From Rhynchopus sp. YZ270_cl-10 (Eukaryota), in NCBI GenBank assembly GCA_964035575.1, contig OZ037836.1, forward strand, positions 310,001 to 374,000: 64,000 nt of DNA, in the 5' to 3' direction. A program made the translations under genes and the position numbers. Below the pieces are notes generated by a model. That model had not been told where the DNA came from. It saw nothing but the letters and a program-made list of their open reading frames with translations, and did no database searches. Each line of letters begins with the position of its first letter. Position 1 is the first letter of the stretch. Below, piece by piece: positions 3,916-61,134 of the stretch.

Positions 3916-3923
3916 GGTCGTGA

Positions 3924-18552: not shown

Positions 18553-18560
18553 GGTCGTGA

Positions 18561-31734: not shown

Positions 31735-31766
<32 letters not shown>

Positions 31767-32273: not shown

Positions 32274-33660
32274 TGAGTGTTGTTTTGTGGTCTTTGGTTT
32301 TTGATAGAAAAAATAAGGTAAAAAGTGATGAGCTGTTTGTTGTGTGTGTTGTGTGTTGTGTGTGGGTGTTGGAGTGGGTAAGTGGTTGTGGGTATTGGGT
32401 GGTCAGAGGGTGGACACTTGGTTGGTGGACGGGAGGGTGTCAGTGTGGATGGTGTTGTGGGACGTGTCTTTGGTGTTGTGCGTTGTGGGGGGAGATCTGC
32501 ACAGATCGAGAATACGTGAAGAACACACTGGCAGAAGGAGACAAGAAGAAGGCAGACATGTTGCCACTGAGACGATGGAGGTGTAAGACAAAGGGGACAC
32601 CTCTGTGTGCAGAACTGTATGCTGCAAGGCTGTGTTGGCACGGGAGGGATGTCTCTCTCTGTGGGGGTGGACAAGTGGCTCAAAAGTGCTAAAACATGGA
32701 ACATAGCGTTTGTTATTCAGACCTCCCCTCGCGACATACCAAGTGGGGTTACTGCGAGGCCGCCAAAAGAGATGGCTCCCTACTGAACGGATGTCCCCTA
32801 ACGGTACCCCTTTTGCACTCAAGAGAAGGCACGGTACTGCGTGAATTGCACCCACGTAGGGGCGAACAACCTTCGTGACCACACAAGACCCACAGTGAGA
32901 GGTTGAAACAAGTTACAAAGGGGAGAGAGGTCTTTTGTTTTGAATTTTTGAAAGCTTAGTTGTATTAGTGTGGACACCCGAGGATGTGCTCCACTATGTG
33001 TTCCTTTTGAACTGGGCCACTATCGTTTTCGTTGGCCTTTATGTAAGTTTTGTATTTTCATGATTTTTCAGTTTCTCTATCCTCTGCGATATGACGCGCA
33101 AACACGCCGTTTTCAATTTGATTCGCAGACAGATACTGACTCACGAAGTTGCTGTGTCAAAAAACACTTTCCTCTGCGAGGCGGGATACCACAGCGACAA
33201 CGTCTATCACTCATGCGCCTATGAGTCGCTCAATGGCGTCATGGCTTTTATCATGACCACAGGGGTCCAACCCTGCACATTGCTCTCACAACACAAAATA
33301 CAAATATGCACACAAATGAAGAGATGAAAGATATCTCACAATAAGACAACAAACACCGGTGGGGTAAAAACTAAGGTGTGTTTTGGGACTTCAAAATTCT
33401 AAGGAGGGTTTTTACCCCACCGATATTTCTACACCTGGACATGAGAAATTTGGTAACAACATGGGGATTTATTTCTGATTCAAAGGGGTGTTTTACGTAT
33501 AGGGTACGGGGCGGAGAATAAAATATGTTCGATAAAAGAAACGCGATCTTTTTTGTTTTATCCTAATGATATAAATAATGGGACGAGAACCAGCACGCAC
33601 AGAACGTTGCTCTCTCTACGTAAAAGCTAAGATATATCACAACTGCGCTGTCCCGGGTAC

Positions 33661-38820: not shown

Positions 38821-38828
38821 GGTCGTGA

Positions 38829-41693
38829 TTAATACGACCTTTCTCGGTTATTGTCCGTGTCGCGGGGGCGGCTGTTCTCGTCCGTCGTCGTATCTTTCTT
38901 CTTCTCCTCACCGCCACGATCTTGAGCATCCCTGGCCTTGTCCTTGGCCTCGCGAGCTGCCTTCTTCAGCGCCTCGTTCTCCTCCGTGAGCCGCTTGCTC
39001 TCCGCTGCCAGCTGCACGTTCTGGTCCTTGCACTGCTGCACCGTCTCCTTCATCTCAGCACATTCTGCTCTGAGCTGTTCCATGTCGAGAGGCTGCGGCG
39101 GTTGCGCGACTGGTGCCGACTGCTGCGGCTGTCCCATCATCCGCTTCTGTGCCTCCAACATCTCCTTCTGCTGCTCCATGACGCCCTTCATCATCTCCCG
39201 CAATTCCTTCATCTCCTTCTTCATCATCTCTATCTCGTCCTGCGCTGCTGATGAAGCTGCGGGAGGTGCCGGAGCCGCCGGTGCCCCTGTTGCAGGGTGG
39301 GGTCGAGCTGCAGGTGGTGCGTATCCCCTCGCCTTAGCCGCCCACGTGCCAGCGCCGCTCTCTGCTGCTCCTTGCCTCGGTACTGGGAACTGCGCCAGAG
39401 GGAAACCCCACGGATTCGCACCCACCTTCTGCACACGACGCCCTTCCTTCACCGCACACACCGTCAACACCAATCCACCCACCTCCAGCACCCCTTCTGT
39501 GCTCGGGCACGGCACATCCGACGTAACCGTCCACTTGTGCCCTCGCGACAGCACCTTCACCGTCCAGCTCGCCTCCCTCGCCAGCCCCTCACACAACAGC
39601 TGGACCGACGTGTTCGCCGGAATTCCCCCAATCTCGTACCTGTGTCCCTGCACGACGACGTCCTCCTGCACAAGAAGCCTCTTCGCAGCCTCCAAGTCCC
39701 CCTTCATCACCCGCACCGCGTAGCCCCCTTCCCCTACGGCGAGTCCGCGCACGCTATCCTCCATGTTCTCCTCAACAAGGTCCAGCCGTGCCAGAGCAGA
39801 CTCCAGCGGTTCCGCCTTCCACAACAACCCACAGTCCCCGTACTCCTTTGCCTGGAAGAGGTGCCGCACAAACACCCCTTCCCGTCCGCTTCTCCTCAGC
39901 ATGGCGCACACCATGTCCTCCGTCACGTCCACAGACATCTCCATCCATCCTCCTCTCTCCAAGCCGCGTCCACACCGCACCCCCTGCAACCCGTACCACC
40001 GACGCATGCGTTGCTCTCCCTTTGTGCGCCCCTCCCCCTGGAGCAACATCGTTCTGCCCATCAGCGTAATCAGCTTGCTCGAGAACGTGCTCTCCACCGG
40101 CTTCACCACGTCGTCCAAGTTAGTTGTCATGGACGACAGCCACACTTCTTCCACCTTTGCTCCCCGCTCCGTCTTCACCGCCACCTTCGCCTTCTTCGTG
40201 CGCGCTGCACCCGTACACTTCGAACGGGACACAATCACCATCTGCGGAAGTTGGTGCAGCAACTGTAACCCCTGCAGAAGTTCGCTCGCCTTCCACGCAA
40301 CTGCCGCCACCTGCGTCACCCCTTCCACATTGCTGGGCACTGCATCCCACACCGGTATTTTCCATCCCTGGGGCGCCAGGTTCAGTGCATCCTCCGCTGC
40401 GCTCTGGGTCACCGCCGTCGCCTTCTTCTTCCCCTTCACAGCTGTAGCCGGTACGTGCAGTTGCGGTTGTCCCACTGCGCACAGAAGTTCCTCCCCCACC
40501 TTCAACCCTGCCGATTCCACAGCACCGTAGTGTACCCCCTCGAACCCCAGGACTACGTCAGACTCCGTGAAGGTGAGGTTAGCCTTCTCCGGAGTTCCTT
40601 CTGCCAGCTGCCCGTCGGACTGCCCGTCGATCAGCGTAGCCCGTAGCGCGTTCTCCGGTCCAACGTCAAGCACAACAATGCGGACCTTCATCACCTTGGC
40701 GATCGCATGGAGACACAAATGGTCCCCCCATGTCCCCAGCTGCGCCATGCCTGCCAGGTATGCATCAATGCACCCCTCGTCCACAAATGGGCTGTAGTGT
40801 GCCTTCTGCTCCTTCATCACCTCAACTGCGAGCCTGCGGAAGCCTGCGTGACCATTCGGGGACCGCTCCACAGACCACGCCACCGACCGGAACAGACAGT
40901 CCCCCTTGCCCCCACATTCCTCCCATCGCAACCCCCATCTTTCCAGGTGTCCCTTGACACCTGGCTGCACGGCAGCTGCCAGCGTCTCCGTCCTGCATCC
41001 CCTTGCGGCGTACCCCCCTCCTGCAACCAGCTGGGCGTTGCTCTCTGCCTCCTTCATCCCCTTCCCCGCCTTCGCGCAGTGCTGCAGCGATACCCTTATC
41101 CCCCTCTTCTTCAACTCGCCCAGCAGCGCCTTCACCTTCTCCAGCCTCGGCTTCAGCAACGACGAGTCGCAGGCGTGCCCCTCAGCCACCTGCCTCCAGA
41201 CCACCAAGTGCGTGACCCACACGCGCGCGTGGGTGCCCTTCGGGTACGACCCGTCGGCCACCCCTTGAAGCCCGAGCAGGATGCCCTCGTACGCGGCTTC
41301 TGCCTTGGTGATGTTTGCCAGGCGGCGGGTTACTTCCCAGTGCGTTCCTGGTTCCTCCTCCGTCGCATCACGCGCCAGCGCACACAGCCCCGTCGTGTCC
41401 CGCACCTTCTCGCCCGTCACTACTCCGATGAAGACATCGGGATCCTTCCTCTCCTCCCCTGCACTGCGCTTCATGCCGCCTGCCCCCGGGTAGGCGGGCT
41501 GCCGTAGCCCCTCAGTCCAGTGCGCCTGCTCCGCCGCCGCCGTCACCTCGTCACTGCAATAGCAGTTCCACGACCTGCAGCACACAGGCGCCGGCGGGTG
41601 TGGCGTCCACTTGGCCGATCCGTGTGACGGATCGTTGCCCGGGATACTCCGCGTGGAGGCTGGACGTGACTTCGACACCATGTACGAAAACAT
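38829..41693 (-). CDS. A3 ORF1 (954 aa) with OTU domain
   Basis: Nearly identical to A1 ORF1, one codon shorter. Confidence 0.88.
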   Translation of the reverse strand: MFSYMVSKSRPASTRSIPGNDPSHGSAKWTPHPPAPVCCRSWNCYCSDEVTAAAEQAHWTEGLRQPAYPGAGGMKRSAGEERKDPDVFIGVVTGEKVRDTTGLCALARDATEEEPGTHWEVTRRLANITKAEAAYEGILLGLQGVADGSYPKGTHARVWVTHLVVWRQVAEGHACDSSLLKPRLEKVKALLGELKKRGIRVSLQHCAKAGKGMKEAESNAQLVAGGGYAARGCRTETLAAAVQPGVKGHLERWGLRWEECGGKGDCLFRSVAWSVERSPNGHAGFRRLAVEVMKEQKAHYSPFVDEGCIDAYLAGMAQLGTWGDHLCLHAIAKVMKVRIVVLDVGPENALRATLIDGQSDGQLAEGTPEKANLTFTESDVVLGFEGVHYGAVESAGLKVGEELLCAVGQPQLHVPATAVKGKKKATAVTQSAAEDALNLAPQGWKIPVWDAVPSNVEGVTQVAAVAWKASELLQGLQLLHQLPQMVIVSRSKCTGAARTKKAKVAVKTERGAKVEEVWLSSMTTNLDDVVKPVESTFSSKLITLMGRTMLLQGEGRTKGEQRMRRWYGLQGVRCGRGLERGGWMEMSVDVTEDMVCAMLRRSGREGVFVRHLFQAKEYGDCGLLWKAEPLESALARLDLVEENMEDSVRGLAVGEGGYAVRVMKGDLEAAKRLLVQEDVVVQGHRYEIGGIPANTSVQLLCEGLAREASWTVKVLSRGHKWTVTSDVPCPSTEGVLEVGGLVLTVCAVKEGRRVQKVGANPWGFPLAQFPVPRQGAAESGAGTWAAKARGYAPPAARPHPATGAPAAPAPPAASSAAQDEIEMMKKEMKELREMMKGVMEQQKEMLEAQKRMMGQPQQSAPVAQPPQPLDMEQLRAECAEMKETVQQCKDQNVQLAAESKRLTEENEALKKAAREAKDKARDAQDRGGEEKKKDTTTDENSRPRDTDNNRERSY

Positions 41694-41733
41694 TGTTTAT
41701 ATTCTTTCTTTTTGTGTACGTTGTGTGTATCCC
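41604..41733 (-). ncRNA. HDV-like ribozyme candidate at A3 5' end
   Basis: Same sequence and fold as the A1 candidate. Confidence 0.8.
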
Positions 41734-43877: not shown

Positions 43878-45799
43878 GTTTAAACTTGTTGACGTGACCC
43901 ATCCCCACCTTCTCAGATGAACTGAGAGGTGAGAAAGGCGCCACGTGACCACCTTCGTTATCGCGGGGCAAACCCGAGACGCCCCTGGGACGTGTCGTGG
44001 TGCCCTTTCCCGCAACAGGCCTGAGGAGACGCCAGCATCGGCAATCCGTCCTTCTTCCTCTTCCGTCCCGCCTGCACACATGCACCGCAAGCACCCCTCC
44101 CGTGGGCCACACAGTTGTGGTGCTTCTGACAGCACTGCTTCATCGACACGTTCCCCGCACCCGCACACTGTCCGCACATCGAGAAGTTATGCACCTCACA
44201 CGCCTCACGCGCCTCCACACAGTCACCCAAAATAAGCTCATCACAATGGTGCGTCGCACAACACGCCGTGATGGAGATGTTGTTGTGCTCGCAGTCCCCG
44301 CATCGCATCTTGGTGTGTATGTCACACACCCGCATGGCCCCCACCTTCCTCCTTACGTCCACACGCACAGCCGGTGTCTGCCGCCTGCGTGCCTCCTGTC
44401 GTCGAATCTGCTCTGCCGCAACTGCAGCTATCGCAGCTCTACTACGCACCTCCTCTGCCTGCTTCTGCTCTTCCTTCGCTTCCTTCCAGCGTTCGTTCTT
44501 TGCTGAGCGTTCTTCCGGAGTGGAAGTATGAGCCACATCCGCGTCGTCACCCCACCTCGCCTTCGTCTTTTCCTTTTGTCGGGAGAGTGCTCTCCGCGAC
44601 GTCGCCTTCTCCTGCAACTCCTTCAGGTATCCTTCAACCCCCGCCGCATGCGTCAGCACAGGTCGCACAGAATACCCCGTCATGATCCCCGCACCCAGTT
44701 CCTGTAAGTGGTGCACCTCCCTCTTCTCCACTCCTTTCCATACGTCCCTTCCATGCGCCATAGTTTTCGCCGTCCGCATCATGGCACCAAAAGATTCGGC
44801 CCTCTTCAACACCGTCTCACCCGGTACGTCCAACCCCGAGAAGATCTCAAAGTCCAGCATGAGCTCGAGCTGCGTGATGGGGGGCGTTGTGCCATCAGGC
44901 CAACGCAATGCAGCGAGCCATGCCTTCAGCGCCCAGAAGTGGTCTTCCGTCCAGCGTGGACTCTTCTTCATGTACTTGCTCCCCCACAGTACGTTCTCCA
45001 GCGGGTTGTAGCTCTCAAGCACTGCACCCTCCTGAGGATTCCAGCCCCAAGGAAAAAGGGATTGGCCCACCACCGCTTGCTTCTTCTTCTTCTGCGAAAA
45101 CCCATGTTCCACGTCGTACTTCTGCCTTGCCAGCGCGATGCTGACCAGCATCAGTTGCACACGACGCACCGTCTGCTCTCTCTCCGCAACACTCAGCTCC
45201 TGCAAGAATATCGTCGGCACCAGGCCAAAGTCCAAGAAGCACGGGGGTGCGTCTTTGAGCAAAACCCGGAGTTTTCCGATGTCCTCTCCACGAATTTCGT
45301 CCCACTGCGGGCACCACCACCAAGCGTGTCTCCGGTCCTCTATCGCCTCACCACAGTATCGGCACAACGAAGTCTCCACCTCCTTGTTCCTCAGCAGCTG
45401 CACCCCCACCAACTGAGAGCCCGACAAGGCTCCGCGTATCGCGCCCGCCAGGTATCTGTCGGTCGTGCGGTCCTTCCACACTGCGTTCGTCGCCTGGCGA
45501 TCCACACCTCCCTCAATGCCCTGCATCGACGGCCTCGTCGTCACTGTCAGGCGGTACGCGTGTGCACGGATGCCCTCTCTCAGCTCATGCAGCCATTTGC
45601 CCTTGTCCCACAGACGAACGTGCACCCTCAACCCGATGTGTGTGGTCCAGAAGTCGAAGCTGCTCCACCGCCATCCGTATCGCTCCAGGTCGTCCCACAA
45701 CAACTCTATCACACCCTTCTTGTGCACTTCAGTAACCCTTGGGTTGGCAACCCCAGGGTTCTCGCGCCGGAGACGTGCCAGATCTGAAGCCCTGTCACG
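43878..45799 (-). mobile_element. Family A, 5'-truncated copy A4 (ORF2 C-terminal part and 3' UTR)
   Basis: About 17-bp TSD ccagggtggttaaagat (43861-43877, 45800-45816) with cc microhomology at the 5' junction. Contains ORF 43958..45727. Confidence 0.93.
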
Positions 45800-46498
45800 C
45801 CAGGGTGGTTAAAGATTTGCAGTCGTCAAGAAAGTATCTGCCAATCTGCGTAACGTTCTTGAGTGGTGTCAGATCCAGGGTGGTTAAAGAATTGCAGGCG
45901 TGAAGAAAGTAATCGCCAATCATCGTAACGTTGTTGAGTGGCGAGAGATCCAGGGTGGTTAAAGAGCTGCATTCGTTAAGAAAGCGACTGCCAATCACCG
46001 TCACGTGGTTGAGTGGGGTCAGATCCAGGGTTGTTAAAGAGTTGCAGCCGGAAAGAAAGAAACTCTCAATCCTCGTAACGTTGAGTGGTAGAGCCAGGGT
46101 GGTTAAAGAGTTGCAGTGGGAGAGAAAGCCAGAGCCAATCGCCGTCACGTGGTTGAGTGGTGTCAGATCCAGGGTGGTTAAAGAGCTGCAGGCGAAAAGA
46201 AAGTGACTGCCAATCACCGTCACATTGCTCAACCCAGAGAGGTCAATAGTTGTTAACGAGGTGCCCTTGAGGAAGTTGTCTCCAATCTGTGTCACAATGG
46301 ACACAGCACTGAGATCAAGGCGCGTTACCCATGCCTTCCTCAAGAACTCATCAGGAATGACAGTCGCAACCTCCGCCTGCAGAAGCAAACACGCCACCTC
46401 AGGATCCTCCACATCCTCCAACCTCTCTGGTGTGATGTTTCTCTCACCCAACGCATGAAGTGCTACTATGGCTTCGTATTTCTGCGTTTTTGTGAGGT
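45800..46498 (-). pseudogene. Middle piece of doubly interrupted UBL-LRR gene
   Basis: LTKTQKYEAI...DDCKSLTTL, near-identical to the matching part of 59171..60301. Confidence 0.9.
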
Positions 46499-46565
46499 GG
46501 GGGCCCGTTTTCGATGCATGCACCCCTATCCGAGATAGGTGATACAATACATCGTGGGGGTGATA

Positions 46566-49500
46566 TTACATAAGTCCATCACCGCCCCTGCTGTGCCCAT
46601 CCTTCTGCTTCGTCTGCTTCTTCTTGAAGAAGCCTCCCAGCGTCGTCTGTCGCCCCTTCGAGGTGTCGTGGTGGCGGCGGCAGCAGTGATCCAGCGTACT
46701 CTTCTCTTGCACACAGTTCCCGCACCTCGAGAGTCTATGCTTAGTGCATGCTTCGTGTCGGATCGGTAACCCGTCGTCGTTGGAGTGGTGCGCAAAGCAG
46801 CAATGCATCAGGTCTGCCTGGGCGTTCTTCGAGCAGGCATCACACTTCGTCTTCCGGTGCAGCACACATATCGCAAACTGGAAGATCGGAACCGCTCCTT
46901 CAGGTGCCTTCACGGGTGCGTCCCCTGGACGCACGTGCTCATGGTGCCGGTAGCGAGCATGCGCAGATGTCTCCTGTTCAGCCCGCTGGATGAATGGTAG
47001 TGCCCTCCTGCCCCTAACTTCTGTGGAGGGGTACGCCGTCTCAGCAGAATACTCCCCCATCCATGTACCTCTCGCTCTATCGCCACCACGGAGCTCCGCC
47101 TCAGACATGCCTTCGGAGCTGCGTTGCAGACGGTACGCCACACCAGCATCGTATAGCGCACGCAATGCCTTCAACGTTTCTTCTCCGCCGGCAAAGATAG
47201 GACGGCGGTCGATGCCTGTGATGGCGTTCGCCCCAAACGAAGCGAGAACATGCGTTACCTTCACCTTCCCCGGATGGAGAGAGCTCTCCGAAAAGGTTCT
47301 GAGTGAAGCCAACATATGCCCAAAGGTGGTCGTCTTCGCCATTTCTCTGTGGGCCAGCGCTACTGGCACCACGTCGTCATCATCGTCGTCTTCCCCACTC
47401 CCGTCGTCTTCCCCCCCATTGTTGACTTCTTCCCCAGTCCCATCCCTCGGCTGCTTCAGCTTCGGCGCTATTCTGCCGGTCTTGTCCCCAGGTCGGATGT
47501 CCATCCCTGTGGCAACCTCGAAGTCGATGAGCAGCTCCATGTGGGAGACTTCACGTCCAGCTTCGTCGCTCCATTGTAAACCACCCAGCCAGGAGGCAAA
47601 CGCCAGCAGCAGCGCACGTCCATACGGCCACCTCCTTTTCAGGGGGGTGTAGTCCACCAAACTGTTCGCGTGTTGCGTCGTCGTGTCCAACTCCGGCGCC
47701 CACGTCCACGGGTATCGGTCTTCTTGCAGTCGCGGGTTCGTCGCTTCCGGTCTGCTCCACTTGGAGCGTGCGATGAGGATGCGCACCATCATCTTCTGCA
47801 GGTCTGCAACACGGGCGCATTCCAAAGGTGTGTCCGGTGTGCACATGCCGCAGATAGCGAGACAGTTTGGCCAGGTCGTTCTGTCAATGTCCAACAGCAA
47901 GGGGTACTCCGCACGAATGCTACTCCATGCTTCACATTCCCACCACAAGTGTTTGTGATTTTCGTCCACCCCCGCTTCGCAGTGAACGCAGATGGCCGAG
48001 TCCCGTATGCGCGCTCTCGCAAGTCGCACCCCCGTTATCGCACCGTCAGCTACAATGTGTCGCAGCGTCCCCGCCTCGTAATCCGTCAAACTTTTGCTTC
48101 GGGTGAGAGCAAGGGTTTTCTCCTTATCCACCCCCGCTTCAATACCCTTCAGGTTAGCTCTGCCTTTGCCATTGACCTTCGCAGTCGTCTTCGTACGGGA
48201 GAGTCGAATGAAGAACATCCGTTCTCGCACAACGTGGCCCAGTCTACCCAAGCTTACTGTCTTCACATCAACGATGCTCCCATCGTGCGTTTTCACTTTT
48301 GTCGTGTCTATCCATGACCACGCAAGGCGGCTGAGGGCTCGCGCAATCAACCCGATGGGTCCTCCAGTCTTCGCCTGCTTCGCTTTCGCACGTGACCTGC
48401 ACTTTTCGACCAGCAAACAGATCTCATCCGATTTGCGTATCATCGCCGCCCACGTCATGATCCTTCTGTAGTCGAATGCCACCGAGGGGTCGAGCAGATG
48501 GCCTTTCTCGAAGACATTCAGCATGACCGGTACGCTTCTTCGGTTCATCTTGTTCACGCCGTGGACCCCTTTCTCCACTGCAGTTGCAAGACTGTTCACG
48601 TATTTCCCAGGTGGGTCCTGCACCGTGATACCGTACACAGATTTCGACATCACTGCAGCCTGCATGATGCCTGCTTTCTCACCTTGAGTCAGCGGGAGGC
48701 ATCCCACCTTACCTGCTAGCGGTCCGCATGCGTCGATGGTGTCTTCCAGCTTCGTCGGGAGCGTAGCCTGTCGGGCCTGCACCGTCGCCCCCAGGCACTC
48801 CGACTTCTCGACGCGAGTAAGATCCGCGCCGTTCATCTGCACAGTTTCCTCTTCATCAGGACGGTTGCTCTGCCACGTGCTTTTCCCCGCGTGGACGCGT
48901 TGTCCCGTCAAGTCTGCAAAGTGTCCGGTGAAGGCGACACCCGCTCGCAGCTGGTCGAGGGTCTTCGTCAGGAGGTTGGTGTCGTCAGCATACGCCAGCC
49001 CCTGCGTGCCCGTTTCCTTCTCCACCCCGTTCATCCACACCGCCACCAGCGCATTCAGGAAGATTACGCTCAGTGGGCATCCTTGGAGGATACCATTCGT
49101 CGCAAACCATTCTTTGCCAAGACCTGCCGGAAGTTTGAAACGCCTCCCCAGCTTCTTGTATATACCCCGGATGGGGCGCATCATGTTGTCGGGAAGACCC
49201 AACCGTTCGACGAGCTGGAACATGATCTCTTGGGGAACACGGTCAAAGCACTTCTGATAGTCGAAGGAGGCTAGATAGATAGGTGTGTCGTCTATCAGAG
49301 CCTCCTCCATCTTCGCACAGAGAAACCACAGCAGGTCTTCGGTTCCGTGTTTGTTCCGGAAGCCGTGTTGCCGCTCGTGAATCCAGGATTCCTGCCACGT
49401 CGCCACTTTGCGGAGTCGAGTCGCCGCCCATAACCTGTACATCACACTGGTGATGGTTATGGGTCGCTGCTTCAGGGGCTCCTCGCCTTCTCCTTTGGGG

Positions 49501-51551
49501 ATGAGCACCACCAACGCCCTCGCAATCACCCTGGGCCAGTTCCCAGTATCCTCGATCAGGTTCAGGCAGCGCGCGAGTTCCTCCAGCAGTGCCAAAGGCA
49601 GTTCCTTCAGCTCCTCCACCCTCCACCCATCGAGGCCTGCCGCCTTTTTCCGCTTCATCTTGCCGATGGTCGTACGGAGGTCGTCGGCGGTCAGGGGTTC
49701 GCATACACAAGGGGTCCCTTCAGGAATGTGTTCCTTGAACCTATCAAAGAACGTCGTCCACGCAGGTTCTTCGGAATCGTCGTACATCCGGAACACCCCA
49801 CCCCAAGCACGGTCATCCATGAGCAGTTCATCCATCTCCTGGAGGTTAGCTGTAACCGTGCCGTCCTCCCGTTTCAGGAACGTGGTGTGTGACGACGTAG
49901 CCTTCCGCAGGAACGAGAACACCTTCGCTGGGTTCACCTTCATGTGTTCCTTCATTGTGCGGCGCCATTCCTTGATGCGGGCCCGACGCCGTTGCTCCAG
50001 CAGGACAAAACCCCTCTTCTTCAAGCAGCCAAGGAGCCCACACAACGCCTCTATCCCAGGAAGGTCGAGGTCCCAGGTGTCACTCTTCAGTAGATGCTTC
50101 TTCTTGCGGATTTTCGCCCACAGCTGCCGTTCGTTCAACGATTCTGCAGATGGCTGACCGAAGCGCTTCCTCCGATCACCAATGAGCTGCTCCATCTGAC
50201 GACATGTCTTCTGCAGTTGAGCCGTCTCCAGGTTCACAGCATCCGGCGTGTCGCAGTCCATGCGGGCCGTCCGATGTCGGAGAACGTCGGGTTGCACCTC
50301 CCCTCTCCCCCTGTGGCGTTGTTGCTTCGGGTCTGAGTCTGCAGCACCTCTCTTCAGCAGGTAGTCCTCCGCAATCTTGCAGAAGCGTGCCCAGCGATCT
50401 TCAACCGACATCTTCGTCAGGTCGGCTTCAGGGGCAGCGTTCTCCTGCATCACCTTCGCTGCAAGCTCCTTCTCCTTCTTCGCCGGCCATTTCGTCCAGT
50501 CGTCGCCGATCAAAGAAAGGGGAGGGCGTGCCTGCGGTGCCTTCTGCTCGTATCGCGTCAGGTCTAACGTCAACACCACCGGTCTGTGTACCGGGAGGCA
50601 GCTCTCTTTCCAGACCACCACTTTGGAGATCGCAGGGGCAGCCACGTGGTTCGCCAGCACCAAGTCGATACGTCTGCCAGACGATGTGGAGGTATAGCAT
50701 GTGTTCTCTGCTGCCTTACCCAACTGCTGTGCGTAGGTATCTGCCGCATCAACCCATTTGCCGGAGGAGATGGCCGCTCGAATGGCTAGACTTTCGTTAG
50801 CCTCTACGTTGAAGTCTCCGGCAATGAACACCGGTATGTCCCCAAGGCTGGCTGCTTCTTCAAAGATGCCTGTCAGGAGTTGCTCCGTGCGGTCGCTGTC
50901 AGCACACACACCATAAAACGAGAACACAGAGATGTTACGTCCCCCGCTCCCATATGCCACCTGCGCATGCGTAAAGCGGCATTCGTTCCACGCTTGTTGG
51001 GCACATTGTGGCGGTACTGCTCTGGTCGGTATGTCAGCGCACGTCATGATCGCAACTCCACCATTCTGCGTGCGCGTGCGCAGAGGGTCTGATCCCTGGC
51101 TTCGTCTGCAAGGGGCACCAAAGAGAAGCTGCTTGGCACCATACCCCTTCACGTCGTTTGCTGCCCCCTTCATCTCTTCTTCTGTGAGGCGCACCTCCTG
51201 CAGAGCACAAACGTCCACATCCCACTCCCCCACCGCAGGGTGTGCCCTCAGAGACGTCACGTTTGCCGTGCCAAGCGACATGGTCGACGGACCCGGATGC
51301 TCCTCCACGTCTCCACATGTCAGCAGTGACCCCCTGCCCAAAAACGCCCCTCGTCGCCTCCCTCGACGCACCCTGTGTCCGACCCCTCGCCCCACCCCCC
51401 TTCGCGTTCTACCCTTACCCCTTGTCCCCGACAGCATACAGCCCGCAGAGCGCAAACGATGCTGACCCCTTGTTGGGGAGACAGTTTTCACAAAAACGTC
51501 TCGTTCTCCAACTACGCACGAAGAAGCCAATCCTGTGCCGTACCCTTCCAC
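46566..51551 (-). CDS. B ORF2: 2A-like peptide + APE + RT + Zn modules
   Basis: GRGSLLTCGDVEEHPGP, then ALQEV, AGDFN, RIDLV, FDYQKCFDRV, QGCPLS, YADD and CVHC..H..C. Confidence 0.95.
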   Translation of the reverse strand: MEGYGTGLASSCVVGERDVFVKTVSPTRGQHRLRSAGCMLSGTRGKGRTRRGVGRGVGHRVRRGRRRGAFLGRGSLLTCGDVEEHPGPSTMSLGTANVTSLRAHPAVGEWDVDVCALQEVRLTEEEMKGAANDVKGYGAKQLLFGAPCRRSQGSDPLRTRTQNGGVAIMTCADIPTRAVPPQCAQQAWNECRFTHAQVAYGSGGRNISVFSFYGVCADSDRTEQLLTGIFEEAASLGDIPVFIAGDFNVEANESLAIRAAISSGKWVDAADTYAQQLGKAAENTCYTSTSSGRRIDLVLANHVAAPAISKVVVWKESCLPVHRPVVLTLDLTRYEQKAPQARPPLSLIGDDWTKWPAKKEKELAAKVMQENAAPEADLTKMSVEDRWARFCKIAEDYLLKRGAADSDPKQQRHRGRGEVQPDVLRHRTARMDCDTPDAVNLETAQLQKTCRQMEQLIGDRRKRFGQPSAESLNERQLWAKIRKKKHLLKSDTWDLDLPGIEALCGLLGCLKKRGFVLLEQRRRARIKEWRRTMKEHMKVNPAKVFSFLRKATSSHTTFLKREDGTVTANLQEMDELLMDDRAWGGVFRMYDDSEEPAWTTFFDRFKEHIPEGTPCVCEPLTADDLRTTIGKMKRKKAAGLDGWRVEELKELPLALLEELARCLNLIEDTGNWPRVIARALVVLIPKGEGEEPLKQRPITITSVMYRLWAATRLRKVATWQESWIHERQHGFRNKHGTEDLLWFLCAKMEEALIDDTPIYLASFDYQKCFDRVPQEIMFQLVERLGLPDNMMRPIRGIYKKLGRRFKLPAGLGKEWFATNGILQGCPLSVIFLNALVAVWMNGVEKETGTQGLAYADDTNLLTKTLDQLRAGVAFTGHFADLTGQRVHAGKSTWQSNRPDEEETVQMNGADLTRVEKSECLGATVQARQATLPTKLEDTIDACGPLAGKVGCLPLTQGEKAGIMQAAVMSKSVYGITVQDPPGKYVNSLATAVEKGVHGVNKMNRRSVPVMLNVFEKGHLLDPSVAFDYRRIMTWAAMIRKSDEICLLVEKCRSRAKAKQAKTGGPIGLIARALSRLAWSWIDTTKVKTHDGSIVDVKTVSLGRLGHVVRERMFFIRLSRTKTTAKVNGKGRANLKGIEAGVDKEKTLALTRSKSLTDYEAGTLRHIVADGAITGVRLARARIRDSAICVHCEAGVDENHKHLWWECEAWSSIRAEYPLLLDIDRTTWPNCLAICGMCTPDTPLECARVADLQKMMVRILIARSKWSRPEATNPRLQEDRYPWTWAPELDTTTQHANSLVDYTPLKRRWPYGRALLLAFASWLGGLQWSDEAGREVSHMELLIDFEVATGMDIRPGDKTGRIAPKLKQPRDGTGEEVNNGGEDDGSGEDDDDDDVVPVALAHREMAKTTTFGHMLASLRTFSESSLHPGKVKVTHVLASFGANAITGIDRRPIFAGGEETLKALRALYDAGVAYRLQRSSEGMSEAELRGGDRARGTWMGEYSAETAYPSTEVRGRRALPFIQRAEQETSAHARYRHHEHVRPGDAPVKAPEGAVPIFQFAICVLHRKTKCDACSKNAQADLMHCCFAHHSNDDGLPIRHEACTKHRLSRCGNCVQEKSTLDHCCRRHHDTSKGRQTTLGGFFKKKQTKQKDGHSRGGDGLM

Positions 51552-51563
51552 CGCACCACACCG

Positions 51564-54500
51564 TCACCGCCCCACATCGCGCAGGGTGTTGCGGCCTACC
51601 AACCTGTTGTCTAGTCCCTGGACGGGACGAAACGCGATCTCGATGACGTCCCCCGCTACCTTCACGACAGTCACCGGGATGGCTGCGCCGTTGCCTCCCT
51701 CCTCGCGGTACTCCATGGAGTCGCCAGCCTCCAGCACTGCGTTCCCGTACGACTCCTCGTTCTTCTCGTTCCCCTCCGCCTGCTCTTTTGCGGGGACTTC
51801 CGTCCGCATCCTGCGCGGCGGACTCAGCAGCGCCACCGTCTCACCGGACTCACTGCGGTCTTCCCGCTTGCCCGCCAGGGTCACGGCAGGTGGCGCCACC
51901 GGCACTCTGGGAGCTGGCGAGGTCTCCGCGTCCTCCTCGACAGCCGCACAGTCTGGCGATGTCTGCACCGGCAGTGCCATGTCGGCGTCGTCCATCCGTG
52001 CCTCGGCGTCTGGTGTCGTGGGTGCGGGGGTCCCTGCGCCGGCGTTCTCCCCTTGCTCCTGCTCACGTTGTGCCTGCACTGCTGCAGCACGTCTCTCCTT
52101 CTTTGCCGCCGCTTCTTCCTGTGCTGCCCGTAGTGCCTCCCGTCGTTTCTCAGCGGCCACAATGTTCCTGCGTTTCTTCTTCTTCTTCGGGGACGCCACC
52201 ACTACCTCCACATCACCGGCGCCAGCAACGTCCGCAGTCGGCGATGTGTCCCTGGGCGGTGCTGACCGCGACCGGTTCCGTGCTTCGGCGACTTCTACGA
52301 CTACCCCCGGCTTTCCACGGATGGTGTCAGCCCTCCTCCTCCTGCGGCGCGGGCTCAGCTCCTCAACCTCACTGGACCCATTTCCCGCACGTATCCGCTT
52401 ACCTGCCATCGTTGCGGGCTCCGGTGACATCACGTCCTCGGCATTCCCGTCTGGGAGTGTGTCCAACAATTCATCCGCCATCTGCATCTCGGGTGTTGTG
52501 GGCGCTGCAGTGGGCACTGCGACAGTCGGGGCCGTAGTAGCAGCAGCCTCCCCCTCGCGCTGCCTGGCGTTCTCAGCAGCAACTGCAGCAGCGGCGGCGG
52601 CGGCTTCCTCCTCCTGCTGCCAGAGGATTGCAGCAGCAGCGTCGGCTTCCTCACGCTGCTTGAGGACTGCAGCAGCGGCGGCCTTCTCCTCCTCCTCACG
52701 CTGCCTCAGGGCTGCAGCAGCAGCGGCCTTCACCTCCTCCTCGCGCTGCTTGAGGGCTGCAGCAGCGGCGACCTCCTCCTCCTGCCTCAGGGCTGCAGCA
52801 GCAGCGGCCTTCACCTCCTCCTCGCGCTGCTTGAGGGCTGCAGCAGCGGCGGCCTTCACCTCCTCCTCACGCTGCCTCAGGGCTGCAGCAGCAGCGGCCT
52901 TCACCTCCTCCTCGCGCTGCTTGAGGGCTGCAGCAGCGGCGGCCTTCGCCTCCTCCTCACGCTGCCTCAGGGCTGCAGCAGCGGCGGCCTTCACCTCTTC
53001 CTCACGCTGCCTCAGGGCTGCAGCAGCAGCGGCCTTCACCTCCTCCTCACGCTGCCTCAGGGCTGCAGCGGCGGCGGCCTTCGCCTCCTCCTCCTCCTGC
53101 CTCAGGGCTGCAGCAGCAGCAGCGGCGTCCTCTCTCGCAGCAGCCGTGGCCTCCTTCGGCATGGAACAGAGCTTGCCCACTTGCTCCAGCATGGCCGCCA
53201 TCCACACCTGCTGCTCCTTCCGTTGCTCCACCCGTTCTTCCCGCAACTGGGCCGTCAGCGACGCCACCGTCTCCTGCAGCAGGGTCTGGAGGCGCTCGCC
53301 CACCAGGCGGTCCAACCTCTCCTCCATCCGGCGCTCCAACTCCGCCCACTTCTCGCCTGCGTCCTCAGGTGATGGGGCGGGCGACGTCATTGGGGGTTGA
53401 CCCTTCGGCGTCCGTTGCTTCGTTGTTGTTGTTGTTGTTGGTGGAGGTGTCCTTGATGTGGTAGTGGGTGGCTTCGCTGCAGCTGGCGCTGTTGCTGCTT
53501 GGCGTGCGTGCGCAGCCCAGGACACCCAACCGTAGTCGGGCCCAGTGCCACGGTTGTGCTGCGCTGTCGCCGCCGGCGCCGTCCGGGCACCAAATGTCGG
53601 ACCAGACGCATGTGCGGTATGTACCTTGGCCTTCTGTTTCGCCCCCGGACCCGGAGCCGTTGCCCTACCCCCGCCCTCCTTATGCCCATCCTTGCGGATC
53701 AGCAGCCCCTTCCCGTTCCCCTCCATGTCCATGGCCCACGTCGGCGGATCCAGCTTCGCTCCCACCACCCAACGCCATCCCTCCAGCCTCCGCAGCGGCG
53801 TCACCGTCCACCCTGCGCCTGCCAGCGACTCCATCACCGCTTCACCGGACGTACCCGACGGGAAACCGGACACCACGTATCGACCTTCGGGCGCCTTTCC
53901 CTCCTGCATGAGTGCCGCATTTGCACGCTCCTGATCCTCCTTCTTCACCCGTATCCCCAGGGACTCGTACCTCGCCGCCACTCCCCATCCCCCCATCCGG
54001 GTCGCCAGCCCCTGGGCCTCTTCTAGCCCCACCCCGTCCACCAACCACACGACAGGCAGATGCTCCGACTGCTCGCGTCTCATCCGGAAGAAGACACCCC
54101 CCTTCCCACTCTGCTTCAGGCAGCGCTCTGATACGTCCTCCCTTACGTCGGCCACCGAGGAGATCAGCTTACCCTCCTGCCACAATGGTGGGCGGTTGAG
54201 GTTGCACCCCACCTCCGCACGCATCTTCTTCCCCGCTGACACCAGGTCCTGCGCTTGTCCTGCTGTCGGCCTCATCGTCACAAACACCGTCACCAGTTGG
54301 ACGGCCGCCGACGCCTTCTTCCCCCCGTTTCCTCTCCCCGGCCTCAGCCTCCCCACCACGTACACGGCCGTGCTCGCCGCCCCGTTCACCTTCCCCCCAT
54401 TCCCCTGCTTACCCATGGGGCACTGCATCTTCTCCCCACCAGACTTCGGGAAGGACCCGAAACCCACCCACGTCACGCCCGGCGTGCGCGCGATCTTCCC

Positions 54501-55238
54501 CTCTGCCTCTACCTCTCTACCCTGCGGCACAAGACAGACCCCCTCCGACTTATCCACCACCTCCCCCCACGGCACAAGCGTCGATCCCACCCACTCCGAT
54601 TGCAGCAATGTCAGCGCTGCCGTCGTCTTCTTTTTCCCTCCCCCCTGGGTGAAGCCCCCCTCCGTCCCCGCCTTCGCATCGTTTCGCGGTTGCGGCACGG
54701 TGTACGGCTTCTCCGTCACCTCCAACGCACCCCCCACCATCGCCTTGCGGGCCCGGTCTTCGGCGGCTTCTTCCCCCGTGCTCGTGGGGAGGACGCACAG
54801 GTAGTGGCATGCGTCCACGTACGCCACCGTCACCGCTGCACCGCTGCCCTTCTCCTTCGGGTGCACCTTCAGCACACGCACCTCCCCATCCTTCACCGAG
54901 AAGGCATACACCTCCCGCATCAGCACCTCCGCCAACGCCTTCAGGGTCAGGTGGTCCCCCCAGGACCCCTGCTTCGCCATCGCCGAGCAGTACCTCCGGT
55001 AGGCGGACGGTCCTCCGTCAACGTGCTCACCCCAATTCTCCGCTTCCCGTTCCAACACCCCCACCGCCATCTCCCTCAGCCCCCCGTGCGCCGTGGCGTC
55101 TCCGTGCACAGCCATCGAGACCGCCTTAAATTGGCAGTCTCCGTTCCCCCCTGCGTCCTTTACCCGCATGTCGAAGCCCCTTAGGTATTTCTGCAGCACC
55201 CCCTTTTCCCCCCCTTGGCCACCTGCCCCTCCGCACAT
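51564..55238 (-). CDS. B ORF1: OTU protease + RRM-like + Ala/Glu-rich helical repeat
   Basis: The first ATG after the ribozyme is at 55238. OTU motifs GNGDCQFKAV, WGDH and CHY. The central region resembles A ORF1. Confidence 0.85.
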   Translation of the reverse strand: MCGGAGGQGGEKGVLQKYLRGFDMRVKDAGGNGDCQFKAVSMAVHGDATAHGGLREMAVGVLEREAENWGEHVDGGPSAYRRYCSAMAKQGSWGDHLTLKALAEVLMREVYAFSVKDGEVRVLKVHPKEKGSGAAVTVAYVDACHYLCVLPTSTGEEAAEDRARKAMVGGALEVTEKPYTVPQPRNDAKAGTEGGFTQGGGKKKTTAALTLLQSEWVGSTLVPWGEVVDKSEGVCLVPQGREVEAEGKIARTPGVTWVGFGSFPKSGGEKMQCPMGKQGNGGKVNGAASTAVYVVGRLRPGRGNGGKKASAAVQLVTVFVTMRPTAGQAQDLVSAGKKMRAEVGCNLNRPPLWQEGKLISSVADVREDVSERCLKQSGKGGVFFRMRREQSEHLPVVWLVDGVGLEEAQGLATRMGGWGVAARYESLGIRVKKEDQERANAALMQEGKAPEGRYVVSGFPSGTSGEAVMESLAGAGWTVTPLRRLEGWRWVVGAKLDPPTWAMDMEGNGKGLLIRKDGHKEGGGRATAPGPGAKQKAKVHTAHASGPTFGARTAPAATAQHNRGTGPDYGWVSWAAHARQAATAPAAAKPPTTTSRTPPPTTTTTTKQRTPKGQPPMTSPAPSPEDAGEKWAELERRMEERLDRLVGERLQTLLQETVASLTAQLREERVEQRKEQQVWMAAMLEQVGKLCSMPKEATAAAREDAAAAAAALRQEEEEAKAAAAAALRQREEEVKAAAAAALRQREEEVKAAAAAALRQREEEAKAAAAAALKQREEEVKAAAAAALRQREEEVKAAAAAALKQREEEVKAAAAAALRQEEEVAAAAALKQREEEVKAAAAAALRQREEEEKAAAAAVLKQREEADAAAAILWQQEEEAAAAAAAVAAENARQREGEAAATTAPTVAVPTAAPTTPEMQMADELLDTLPDGNAEDVMSPEPATMAGKRIRAGNGSSEVEELSPRRRRRRADTIRGKPGVVVEVAEARNRSRSAPPRDTSPTADVAGAGDVEVVVASPKKKKKRRNIVAAEKRREALRAAQEEAAAKKERRAAAVQAQREQEQGENAGAGTPAPTTPDAEARMDDADMALPVQTSPDCAAVEEDAETSPAPRVPVAPPAVTLAGKREDRSESGETVALLSPPRRMRTEVPAKEQAEGNEKNEESYGNAVLEAGDSMEYREEGGNGAAIPVTVVKVAGDVIEIAFRPVQGLDNRLVGRNTLRDVGR
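52560..53140 (-). repeat. 45-bp coding tandem repeat (REEEVKAAAAAALRQ) in B ORF1
   Basis: About 10-11 degenerate units visible in DNA and protein. Confidence 0.92.
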
Positions 55239-55275
55239 CGCGTCGAGGCTGCCCCCCGCCGCCGTCCTTCTTCCC

Positions 55276-55359
55276 CGCGCTTTAGCAGACGCCTCCCCCC
55301 ATAGAGGAGGGGGGCGTCTCCCGAGGGTACCCCGTGGAGGCGCGTCGTCTCTCACCCTC
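55276..55359 (-). ncRNA. HDV-like ribozyme candidate at B 5' end
   Basis: P1 GAGGGTG/TACCCTC, CC-TCCACGG-GG, GG, P4 AGACGCC../..GGCGTCT, J4/2 GCTAAA, P2 CGCG/CGCG. Confidence 0.68.
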
Positions 55360-55575
55360 TTTCTGCGTTTTTGTGAGGTTGATTGTGTCACCAGCACTCA
55401 GCTGCGTCATGTCCGCTCCTTCTCCCATCGCTTCGTCTCCGAAACTCATGCAAAAGCTGTCTTCAGGCAACCCCATTGCAGACGCCACCTTCCGCCGCAG
55501 GTCCTCCACTGTGTCATCTGCACCCACCTCGACTGTGTGCTGATTCGCTTTGAAATCCTCGAAGTGCACGTCCAT
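55360..55575 (-). pseudogene. 5' (UBL) piece of doubly interrupted UBL-LRR gene
   Basis: MDVHFEDFKANQ...LSAGDTINLTKTQK, then element B. Confidence 0.9.
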
Positions 55576-57345
55576 TTGTTTGTTGTGGCTTTGTGTTCAC
55601 TGATCTGTGTGTGGTGGTGGGGTGTGGAGGACAAGACAAGAAATACCCCGTGCAACCCCGTTTTGAAGGGTTTCAACCCTGAACAAATGCCCGAAACGTC
55701 GTTATTGGCGCTTTCTGCAGTTCCTCCGTTCGTACGGGGATTCCTCTTCCCCGTGGGTGAGGCTAAGTGGAGCTAATCCCTGCGCCGCTGATCTGCGAGA
55801 ACGAAATGAACATTGCTGCAAGGACTGTGCTGTGTATGCACCCCAATGCGAGGTTTGCATCTGATATGCCCTCCACCCTCTGCACCCTCTGCACCACCAA
55901 GGCAGGAAGCAAGGAAGAGGAGAAATGGATATGATCGTCAACTAGAGAGACACATCGGCCTCGTAAGGACATTACGTGACGACGACGAGGTCAAAAACAG
56001 GTCGACATACGCGCGTCAACGCCGTCATCATCCCCGTACTTACGACATCATACTGACTGTAATTTCCATCCGAAGACAGCGTGTCGGGAACGTGTACTAT
56101 CAACACTGGACCCGATAAGCTATCAAACACACGCGAGCGTGCCACGTACCATCGCCGCAAGTACGTGTGAGGCAGGTGCATGTGTAGCGCAACGTACCCA
56201 AGACAGTGTAAAGGGGATGGGGACAGTGTGTGTGTGGTGTGCAAGGGATAAGAAACAGTTACAAGGGGAGAGGTCTTTTGTTTTGTTTTTTTGAAAGCTT
56301 CGTTGTATTAGTGTGGACACCCAAGGATGTGCTCCACTATGTGTCCTTTTGAACTTGACCACTATCGTTTTTGTTTGCTTTATGTAAGTTTTGTATTTTC
56401 ATGACATTTCAGTTTCTCTATCCTCTGCGATATGACGCGCAAACACGCCGTTTTCAATTTGATTCGCAGACCGATACTGACTCACGAAGTTGCTGTGTCA
56501 AAAAACACCTTCCTCTGCGAGGCGGGATACCACAGCGACAACGTCTATCACTCATGCGCCTATGAGTCGCTCAATGGCGTCATCGCTTTAATCATGACTA
56601 CCCTGCACATTGCTCTCACAACACAAAATACAAATATGCACACAAATGAAGAGATGAAAGATATCTCACAATAAGACAACAAACACCGGTGGGGTAAAAA
56701 CTAAGGTGCGTTTTGGTACTTCAAAATTCTTAGGAGGGTTTTTACCCCACCGATATTTCTACACCTGGCCATGATAAATTTGGTAACAACATGGGGGAAG
56801 GAAATCACACACCCCACACAGCTCCATTGATGTTTATCAAAGCTTTTTGATAAAAAGTAATGAACACAAAAAAACCAGCGCGTGTGGAAGAAAAAAAGAA
56901 AGCAAAATATTTATTTCTGATTCAAAGTGGTGTTTTTACGTTTTGGGTACGGGGCGGAGAATAAAATATGTTCGATAAAAGAAACGCGAGCTTTTTTGTT
57001 TTATCCTAATGATATAAATATTGGGATGAGAACCAGCACGCACAGAACGTTGCTCTCTCTACGTAAAAGTTTCGCACCCTCTTTCCTAATATCTCACTGC
57101 TGATGCTGTATTTTTACGAGAACAAGGGGCAGCCTTAGCTTTGCTTGAAGTACAGAAATGAGGTCAGCGAACAATAAAGGAGGAGGGTGGTAAATTTGTT
57201 ATTGAATAACTTTCAAATCAAAGAAGAGAAAGCTCAAGGACGTCAATAGATGCATTCAAACCTCTCTTTCTTTATATGATTACATGCAAGACGGAAAGCA
57301 TGTGGGGCTTCCTAAGATATATCACAACTACCCTGTCCCGGGTAC

Positions 57346-59170: not shown

Positions 59171-60301
59171 TCATTGTGCGTGTCTCTGTCGTTTGTGGGC
59201 TTGCTCGGGGGATTCGTCTCTGCTGCGTTTCGGACGTGCTTCAACCACAAGATGCTTAAGTTCCTCGCTATTCCTTACTGTGCTGGACACAGCACTGCTG
59301 CAGCCGGAGAGGTAAATACTCTTCAACGAAGTGCAGCTGGTAGCAAAACCCGAACCTGATATCATACAGGTTTGTACGTACTGAACCTTGTTGAGTGGCG
59401 AGAGATCCAGGGTGGCTAAAGATTTGCAGTCGTCAAGAAAGTATCTGCCAATCTGCGTAACGTTCTTGAGTGGCGAGAGATCCAGGGTGGTTAAAGAGTT
59501 GCAGGCGTGAAGAAAGTAATCGCCAATCATCGTAACGTTGTTGAGTGGCGAGAGATCCAGGGTGGTTAAAGAGCTGCATTCGTTAAGAAAGCGACTGCCA
59601 ATCACCGTCACGTGGTTGAGTGGTGTCAGATCCACGGTTGTTAAAGAGTTGCAGCCGGAAAGAAAGAAACTCTCAATCCTCGTAACGTTGAGTGGTAGAG
59701 CCAGGGTGGTTAAAGAGTTGCAGTGGGAGAGAAAGCCAGAGCCAATCGCCGTCACGTGGTTGAGTGGTGTCAGATCCAGGGTGGTTAAAGAGCTGCAGGC
59801 GAAAAGAAAGTGACTGCCAATCACCGTCACATTGCTCAACCCAGAGAGGTCAATAGTTGTTAACGAGGTGCCCTCGAGGAAGTTGTCTCCAATCTGTGTC
59901 ACAATGGACACAGCACTGAGATCAAGGCGCGTTACCCATGCCTTCCTCAAGAACTCATCAGGAATGACAGTCGCAACCTCCGCCTGCAGAAGCAAACACG
60001 CCACCTCAGGATCCTCCACATCCTCCAACCTCTCTGGTGTGATGTTTCTCTCACCCAACGCATGAAGTGCTGCTATGGCTTCGTACTTCTGCGTGTTTGT
60101 GAGGTTGATTGTGTCACCAGCACTCAGCTGCGTCATGTCCGCTCCTTCTCCCATCGCTTCGTCTCCGAAACTCATGCAAAAGCTGTCTTCAGGCAACCCC
60201 ATTGCAGACGCCACCTTCCGCCGCAAGTCCTCCGCTGTGTCATCTGCACCCACCTCGACTGTGTGCTGATTCGCTTTGAAATCCTCGAAGTGCACGTCCA
60301 T
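59171..60301 (-). CDS. UBL-LRR protein with bipartite NLS-like tail (376 aa)
   Basis: Intact ORF ending KRSRDESPEQAHKRQRHAQ. Confidence 0.92.
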   Translation of the reverse strand: MDVHFEDFKANQHTVEVGADDTAEDLRRKVASAMGLPEDSFCMSFGDEAMGEGADMTQLSAGDTINLTNTQKYEAIAALHALGERNITPERLEDVEDPEVACLLLQAEVATVIPDEFLRKAWVTRLDLSAVSIVTQIGDNFLEGTSLTTIDLSGLSNVTVIGSHFLFACSSLTTLDLTPLNHVTAIGSGFLSHCNSLTTLALPLNVTRIESFFLSGCNSLTTVDLTPLNHVTVIGSRFLNECSSLTTLDLSPLNNVTMIGDYFLHACNSLTTLDLSPLKNVTQIGRYFLDDCKSLATLDLSPLNKVQYVQTCMISGSGFATSCTSLKSIYLSGCSSAVSSTVRNSEELKHLVVEARPKRSRDESPEQAHKRQRHAQ

Positions 60302-61134
60302 TTGTTTGTTGTGGCTTTGTGTTCACTGATCTGTGTGTGGTGGTGGGGTGTGGAGGACAAGACAAGAAATACCCCGTGCAACCCCGTTTTGAAGGGTTTC
60401 AACCCTGAACAAATGCCCGAAACGTCGTTATTGGCGCTTTCTGCAGTTCCTCCGTTCGTACGGGGATTCCTCTTCCCCGTGGGTGAGGCACAAACTCGCA
60501 TTATCCCGTACTCCTTCTTCAGTTGCGTCTTCATCTCCTCTCTGCTTGTCCCCGGCTTCACCGGATCCACCAGGAGCTTCTCCCCACTCCTTGTCATCTC
60601 CGAGGTCGGGTTGCAACGGAAGGAAATAGTCGGCAGATGGCTCGGGCGAGGAGGCTGGGAGGAAGATGAAAGAGGTGGGCGGCCCTTCGGGCCCCAGCCC
60701 ACCTCTTCAATTTTTTTATTTGTACCTTTTTTGTTTTTTTTGAAGAATTCTTCATCGGATTCTTCAGCGCGGAAAAACTGATTATGGCTTAGTACCGCAC
60801 TCCCGTGTATTTGGTGCACCCAGATGGTCAAACACCCGATTTTTGCGTTTTTTTGCGTTTTTTTGCATTTTTTCGCCCAGTATTGAGGACATGTGGGGGT
60901 GAGGACCACCGAGGGCAATTTTGTGAATTTTTTTGGGGTCAAAAATTGACTTGTCTTTCGCAAATCCCACGAAAAATCGTGGTGCGCAAAATCGCGTTTT
61001 AGACCCCCTTAGATGCTCAAAAGTGTCAAATTTTGCTTTTAATGGCCTCAAATCGTCGAAATTCGCCCTAAAAGGGGGCAAAAAAAAAAATTCGAGAGTC
61101 CCTTTCCCTGTGAGGCAATAGCCACCGGCAAAAA

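Follow-up and report, generated by a model that had tools for sequence, protein, structure and literature searches.

The 64-kb window considered here (the whole stretch of contig OZ037836.1 from the protist Rhynchopus sp. YZ270_cl-10, positions 310,001 to 374,000, within which all positions below are counted) carries on its minus strand an intact 8.9-kb long interspersed nuclear element (LINE) of the APE endonuclease-reverse transcriptase (APE-RT) type, referred to as B1. Its first open reading frame (ORF1) ends at a UGA codon followed by CGG, and the frame then continues through a linker and a 2A-like StopGo peptide into the APE domain of ORF2. The reading favoured here, which is held to be moderately probable, is that readthrough of the UGA sets the ORF1:ORF2 ratio and that StopGo frees APE-RT, as an earlier note on this DNA had proposed.

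Under this reading, most ribosomes would stop at the UGA and yield abundant ORF1 protein (ORF1p), while a few per cent would insert an amino acid there, continue through the linker of 75 codons, and leave the Gly-Pro bond of the 2A peptide unformed. The predicted products are ORF1p with a basic tail and a Pro-started APE-RT, both made in cis on the same RNA, and StopGo would take the role of the protease in retroviral Gag-Pol. Such an arrangement probably originated when a leaky stop was placed in an ancestral ORF1-(2A)-APE-RT polyprotein frame.

How LINEs make a little ORF2 protein (ORF2p) from a bicistronic RNA is unsettled (PMC3708506, PMC5009743). If both steps work, the junction would be a third solution besides reinitiation and the single-ORF 2A, and it would explain why a LINE that keeps ORF1 also keeps a 2A peptide, the published trend being that 2A goes with ORF1 loss (PMC3894237, PMC3708506). 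It would also represent a readthrough-then-StopGo cassette in a cellular genome, that is, a natural, ratio-setting and protease-free two-gene cassette that offers 2A variants with His at position 14 or 16 (H14, H16) in native context. The junction is compact (280 nt) and occurs in two natural versions. Each half has precedent, namely 2A before APE (PMC3708506) and readthrough suggested between in-frame LINE ORFs (PMC5405496). In the open-access PMC/bioRxiv literature, no report was found of a LINE in which a 2A comes after a site of stop-codon readthrough, or of LINEs with an OTU-bearing ORF1.

The ORF1 stop codon and its conservation

On the minus strand, ORF1 ends in CGG TGA CGG TGT GGT GCG GTG, with the TGA at 51566-51564, and the frame behind it is open for 1665 codons up to a TAA at 46568-46566. 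The 2A-like peptide (51338-51288) follows the stop after exactly 75 open codons. Both observations bear out the earlier note, which had described ORF2 as continuing in the frame of ORF1 and had placed the peptide about 75 codons downstream. The stop with its 3' triplet (TGA-CGG, 51561..51566, minus strand) is a type II readthrough context; the note's description of UGA-CGG as a viral leaky-stop context agrees with this class (PMC3159437), whose contexts have been tabulated (PMC3542737).

Other copies were compared using four sequencing runs, all of them contigs of unspecified kind, aligned to the window at a threshold of 80% identity. Contigs crossing the stop without difference are listed for three of the four runs (X1, X2, and X3; two studies, one of which is possibly the source of the window), and of four near-identical ORF1 proteins, three have the same last residue, whereas P0009 goes out of frame within the repeats. 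Among the run contigs, none of the listed joints eliminates the stop, although rare forms are dropped from sequences of this type. One X3 contig follows ORF1 to 51636 and then continues with at least 255 unlike letters, which is possibly a junction variant or an insertion.

A second, diverged subfamily is present in all four runs. It matches 51426-51539 and then diverges, and in each run the 30 diverging letters, read in the frame of ORF2, give R-T-K-stop-R-D-G-V-M-V, the stop being TGA before CGG. Two homologs of ORF1, P0013 and P0014, are identical to the ORF1 of the window at 54% over residues 10-560, 43% over a long alignment, and 25% in a C-terminal one. Their final residues, RTK, align with the end of that ORF1, so that the stop falls on the same codon; this shared ending suggests that they are the ORF1 of the second subfamily. 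UGA-CGG is likely leaky because the diverged subfamily keeps the position of the stop, the frame, and the CGG. An ORF2 out of frame with ORF1, which the earlier note had named as a refutation, was not seen in the copies compared, and a conserved in-frame UGA followed by CGG or CUA, as in type II sites, is found in both subfamilies. The favoured reading is further supported because stop and CGG are identical at 6/6 positions while the flanks diverge (3/9 in the nine nucleotides before, 9/15 in the 15 after).

Further support comes from the sequence downstream of the stop. From +25 to +138 nt lies a conserved block (51426..51539, minus strand), which aligns without gaps to the second subfamily with 15 differences in 114 nt (87% identity), while about 1 kb of ORF1 from the same contig falls outside the 80% threshold. 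Conservation of this block above that of ORF1 supports readthrough because viral type II sites typically show raised conservation in the 100-200 nt that follow UGA-CGG/CUA (PMC3159437). Eight of the 15 differences are listed, all upstream of an in-frame ATG at 51437 within the block; five fall at third positions and none creates a stop (P ~0.09), a bias that also favours translation of this segment from upstream. Between the block and the 2A lies a variable Arg/Gly-rich linker (51357..51425, minus strand) of 69 nt, or of 108 nt in the second subfamily, as found in one contig in each of three of the four runs. The second subfamily therefore remains in frame through two indels (-6 and +39 nt; 86 versus 75 codons), and this retention of frame likewise argues for readthrough.

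Two other explanations of the UGA were considered. Reassignment of UGA to Trp was rejected, as five long ORFs contain 128 TGG and no TGA codons. Selenocysteine at the UGA is unsupported, with no Rfam match in 46000-56000 and a 3' untranslated region (UTR) of just 67 nt.

The 2A-like peptide and its relatives

The peptide GRGSLLTCGDVEEHPGP (core DVEEHPG/P; 51288..51338, minus strand) has its predicted skip site between Gly (51293-51291) and Pro (51290-51288). No other D(V/I)ExN/HPG motif appears when the window is translated in all six frames. The peptide matches the natural 2A of an RNA-virus-like contig (L002) at 16/17 residues, with an expectation in the window of ~5e-14; the next best match in the window reaches 7/17. 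The 17-mer of L002 is presumably the Thosea asigna T2A with which the earlier note had compared the peptide, N-to-H being the sole difference. Seven of the eight positions of the class A core D(V/I)ExNPGP are present, with H for N at position 16, a documented rare natural variant (PMC12846837).

The same peptide is kept in relatives. The protein P0001 of Diplonema papillatum has GRGSLLTCGDVHENPGP at the same place, 15/17 residues being identical compared with 48% over the aligned region. The Leu-rich upstream context typical of 2A is also present, GRGSLLTCG being kept in P0001 and LL or LxCG in other relatives. In the second subfamily, the two changes listed within the 2A leave the amino acid unaltered, and none is listed in the 30 nt that include the EEHPGP codons. 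The B1 2A is thus very likely real, and because these two changes are synonymous and D. papillatum keeps 15 of 17 residues, the sequences indicate that it is translated and selected; skipping is predicted. Conservation in position and sequence, together with the natural occurrence of H16, is also what favours the claim that StopGo would free APE-RT. Initiation at an ATG behind the peptide would not explain its conservation.

Two RNA-virus-like metagenome contigs (L001, 3483-5624; L002, 650-3148) contain this 17-residue 2A, exactly or nearly, upstream of a capsid-like region. Because these contigs are unrelated, near-identity to T2A does not appear to point to one virus, and direct transfer of the peptide from a single virus is possible but unsupported. 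Origin from a laboratory vector was rejected, as the peptide belongs to an element bounded by a target duplication and has its counterpart in the D. papillatum protein.

P0001 is also the nearest named protein (40% over residues 60-560) and is sister to the B1 protein, with support of 100/100, in a tree of eight sequences that has no named clade references and omits P0002, P0003, and P0008; this relationship makes a diplonemid-like host likely. A wider survey covered the best 150 of 655 matches (148 new ones plus P0003 and P0005), many of them fragments, with 86 of the 150 lacking an APE start recognised by the pattern used. Among these 150, a class-A-like 2A motif occurs in 17, one of which is B1 itself (16 of the 149 others), GEAxxPG in 38, and neither motif in 95; H16 and H14 both recur among the relatives. 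GEAxxPG is often situated at the 2A position just before APE (P0018-P0152, L003) and could represent either a degenerate StopGo class or another one.

Sixteen relatives were chosen for the length of their N-terminal regions. In P0077 the central ORF1 region shares a frame with APE, and in six others an OTU-like region does so; a class-A 2A is absent from P0077 and from these six. P0007, a eukaryotic gene model from D. papillatum that may hide introns, combines a weakly ORF1-like region (E 0.002-0.004) with APE-RT and, between the two, has tandem 2A-like motifs. Motifs of this kind, likewise placed in tandem behind an ORF1-like region and ahead of APE, were seen in the broken element L004 (500-900). 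The in-frame polyprotein is thus native to the clade, and a leaky stop would be an easy step. This encoding of ORF1-type modules and APE in one frame supports the favoured reading, and it also means that the shared frame alone proves little.

Searches for further intact relatives gave no loci in the viral contig scan, two loci in the metagenome scan, both virus-like and without an intact relative with a readable junction, and five in the genome contig scan, none with a readable intact junction (L003 has no upstream DNA, L004 is broken by frameshifts, and L005-L007 match the RT region only). An Atlas search with ORF1 residues 290-540 returned only matches below 0.8.

Readthrough weighed against other routes to ORF2

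Several points count against readthrough followed by StopGo. TGA is the commonest stop triplet on the B1 sense strand (156 of 211, 74%). CGG follows nine of these 156, and the rough chance of an in-frame junction with TGA and CGG is ~1.4% by our own arithmetic; the stop context alone is less unusual than the 2A. Viral UGA-CGG sites usually carry an extended stem, which boosts readthrough 3- to 14-fold in alphaviruses (PMC3159437, PMC13517186). In single-sequence folds and duplex shuffles on the window sequence, no such extended 3' stem-loop starting 8-16 nt after the stop was detected in B1: post-stop windows show no stem above chance (folding z ~-1.2 to +1.4), a long-range duplex as good as the observed one arises in 944 of 1000 shuffles, and the Rfam search after the stop gave nothing meaningful. 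The in-frame UGA junction of Tca2 gave no readthrough in a reporter (PMC2194720). Moreover, the comparison involves two lineages, in which the chance retention of TGA-CGG is ~0.1 by our own estimate; of the 108-nt variable linker, the 30 letters seen are open and 78 are unseen; and seven of the 15 block changes and three of the five changes near the 2A are unlisted. Recombination near the stop could make the junction segment younger than ORF1, and the shared frame of ORF1 and ORF2 may be inherited from a fused ancestor.

Folding also yields a small hairpin at 51502-51478, confidently predicted and noted as a lead: three of the listed changes lie in its loop, but one strikes a paired base.

Further adverse points concern initiation within the linker, which together with the 2A forms the main rival, rated here as rather unlikely. 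Ribosomes would terminate and reinitiate, or initiate internally, at a linker AUG or a near-cognate codon, the short leader so made would end in an active 2A, and the frame would be a relic of a fused ancestor. Both linkers carry an in-frame ATG, at 51437 here, as the earlier note had cautioned, and in the second subfamily five codons downstream of the stop, a position at which the window reads GTG. The ATG at 51437 lies 50 codons before the skip site and fits the known 2A-bearing LINEs, in which the 2A stands 40-80 amino acids from the start of ORF2 (PMC3708506). For LINE-1 and SART1, reinitiation has been proposed (PMC5972666, PMC10275272, PMC5009743), in SART1 with the need for a structure downstream of the stop (PMC10275272), and CR1-26_BF, CR1-53_BF, and CR1-1_LG have ORF1 plus 2A (PMC3708506); the lack of a detected readthrough stem also suits it. 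In addition, a second LINE family in the same window, family A, gets its ORF2 by another route, so that the host seems to use other non-canonical ones: this ORF2 lies in the -1 frame, overlaps the ORF1 stop (TAT TAA TC), has neither a 2A nor an ATG before APE, and would need frameshifting or non-AUG reinitiation. On the other hand, reinitiation does not require that TGA-CGG be retained amid diverging flanks, nor that changes upstream of 51437 favour third positions; near the stop, the two subfamilies offer different candidate start codons (GTG versus ATG); and since reinitiation already yields a separate ORF2p, the 2A would have less to do. The claim that readthrough sets the ratio is therefore upheld in part, by the same stop in the main subfamily and the in-frame TGA-CGG of the diverged one, with the missing alphavirus-like stem and the linker ATGs against it.

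ORF2 might instead be translated from a separate or processed RNA, produced by spliced-leader trans-splicing into the linker, by an internal promoter, or by a cis-intron beginning at G-TGACGG that removes the stop, which we regard as very improbable. Trans-splicing and GT-AG introns are both found in diplonemids (PMC10161547), the first two letters of the conserved GTGACGG are GT, an in-phase AG lies at ~51469, and Tca2 has a junction promoter (PMC2194720). However, the linker is G-rich and offers no AG with more than 60% pyrimidine in the preceding 20 nt. Since ORF2p acts in cis (PMC3708506; established for LINE-1), a processed RNA would itself be copied, whereas the copies seen are full-length and keep the stop.

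The StopGo step has its own rival, to which we give a slightly smaller chance still, in which HPGP is weak or inactive on host ribosomes and ORF2 either starts at an ATG at 51281 or remains an uncut fusion. That ATG, the other one pointed out in the earlier note, is found three codons behind the Pro codon of the skip site, and a third variant encodes two Met right after the 2A (contig divergence at 51286). There is evidence both for and against the note's warning that HPGP may be weakly active. In P2A and F2A, where N16 changes are poorly tolerated, no substitution of N16 reached the activity threshold of 0.6 (bioRxiv 2026.09.24.754024), N-to-H lowers the activity of the L1Tc 2A (PMC3708506), and peptides of class B generally work better with N than with H (PMC12338488); the first two of these findings also tell against StopGo in B1. 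By contrast, natural variants with H at position 14 or 16, which recur in relatives, are more than 95% active in native contexts (PMC12846837), which supports the favoured reading; the His codon lies inside the 30 nt without a listed change between the subfamilies, and the D. papillatum protein keeps the peptide without a Met right after it.

With readthrough followed by StopGo as the favoured reading, B1 can be set beside known systems. It agrees with the 2A-bearing APE LINEs (L1Tc, Ingi; Rex1, L2, CR1, Crack) in having the 2A directly before APE (PMC3708506), as the earlier note had stated for L1Tc and other non-LTR elements, and with L1Tc in the HPGP variant, which occurs in 20% of L1Tc copies (PMC3708506). 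L1Tc has a 5' hepatitis delta virus (HDV)-like ribozyme (PMC5814959), for which B1 has a sub-threshold candidate. Most 2A LINEs lack ORF1 (PMC3708506, PMC3894237), whereas B1 has a 1,200-residue, OTU-bearing ORF1 and an in-frame UGA-CGG ahead of the 2A; L1Tc has RNase H, for which ORF2 of B1 shows no Pfam match. By architecture (large ORF1, no RNase H match), B1 is not a member of Ingi/L1Tc.

Paramecium uses another genetic code, and in gag-stop-pol long terminal repeat (LTR) elements the fusion is cut by a protease, a point in which B1 differs. Group 3 non-LTR elements of Paramecium resemble B1 as APE-RT LINEs with ORF1 and ORF2 in one frame, for which readthrough was suggested from sequence; they belong to a ciliate clade, and a 2A is not mentioned in the parts of the source cited here (PMC5405496). 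Candida Tca2 and other in-frame gag-stop-pol retroelements likewise have an in-frame UGA between structural and enzymatic ORFs (PMC2194720). As in the type II sites of alphaviruses, tobraviruses, furoviruses, and coltiviruses, UGA-CGG stands before a polymerase frame (PMC3159437, PMC3542737) and conservation is raised over ~140 nt after the stop. Unlike them, B1 is a LINE, shows no detected extended stem-loop, and has a 2A after the stop. In cardioviruses, StopGo is followed by a -1 frameshift, so that two serial recoding events set the ratio of replication enzymes (PMC5009743), as proposed for B1, but in the reverse order, with frameshifting instead of readthrough, and in an RNA virus. Overall, B1 resembles a 2A LINE combined with a viral type II stop, with the extended stem undetected.

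Structure and surroundings of B1

The complete element occupies 46499..55359 (minus strand) and is flanked by a 20-bp target-site duplication (5' side, 55360..55379; 3' side, 46479..46498). It lies in sense orientation within a host ubiquitin-like/leucine-rich repeat (LRR) gene, whose family has LRR and ubiquitin Pfam matches, and its flanks match an uninterrupted paralog at 59407-60489. The order of APE (PF03372) and then RT (PF00078) in ORF2 fits an APE-type non-LTR retrotransposon, and no terminal repeat appeared in the part of the self-comparison output seen.

ORF1, of ~1,200 residues, extends from stop to stop over 55397-51567 (minus strand) and from its first ATG over 51567..55238 (minus strand). 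It comprises an OTU-like cysteine protease domain (PF02338, 54804..55148, minus strand, E 8.8e-10), a central conserved region, Ala/Glu repeats, and a conserved C-terminal domain of ~55 residues. ORF1 homology with the second subfamily starts upstream of the first ATG of B1, so that this ATG is only a candidate start of ORF1. The ORF2 frame (46566..51563 from stop to stop, minus strand, 1665 residues) carries the APE endonuclease domain (50610..51236, minus strand, E 6.3e-10), the reverse transcriptase domain (48852..49502, minus strand, E 2.4e-19), and C-terminal Cys/His-rich repeats before the TAA.

Sense insertions of B copies were seen near the same spot of ubiquitin-like/LRR host genes (window 55360-55580, minus strand; P0010-P0012). 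In these three database models ORF1 continues the frame of the host ubiquitin-like N-terminus, to which it is fused, whereas in the window the two are in different frames.

A possible HDV-like ribozyme lies at 55262..55359 (minus strand). The match to RF02682 covers the whole model and starts exactly at the first base of B1, but at 13.8 bits (E 1.9) it is far under the gathering score of 44 and serves as a lead only; the 10-kb Rfam scan gave no HDV-like match. Within 55262-55359, inspection by eye allows P1, P1.1, P4, and a GCUAA junction to be drawn, though with a short P2. It is about an even bet that B1 is a LINE of viral style, in which a type II UGA-CGG would throttle entry into the polymerase frame, an HPGP StopGo would free APE-RT, and a 5' HDV-like ribozyme may cut the RNA from a host polycistronic transcript.

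Family A, which also has an OTU-bearing ORF1, is situated at 1-6794, 13786-21449, 34054-41696, and 43958-45808 (minus strand), with target duplications of 18-19 bp in two copies. Elsewhere in the window, a near-perfect tandem repeat with a period of ~56 bp lies at 10480-11073, and an HSP70 gene without introns (30429-32402, minus strand) is located inside the LRR gene array.

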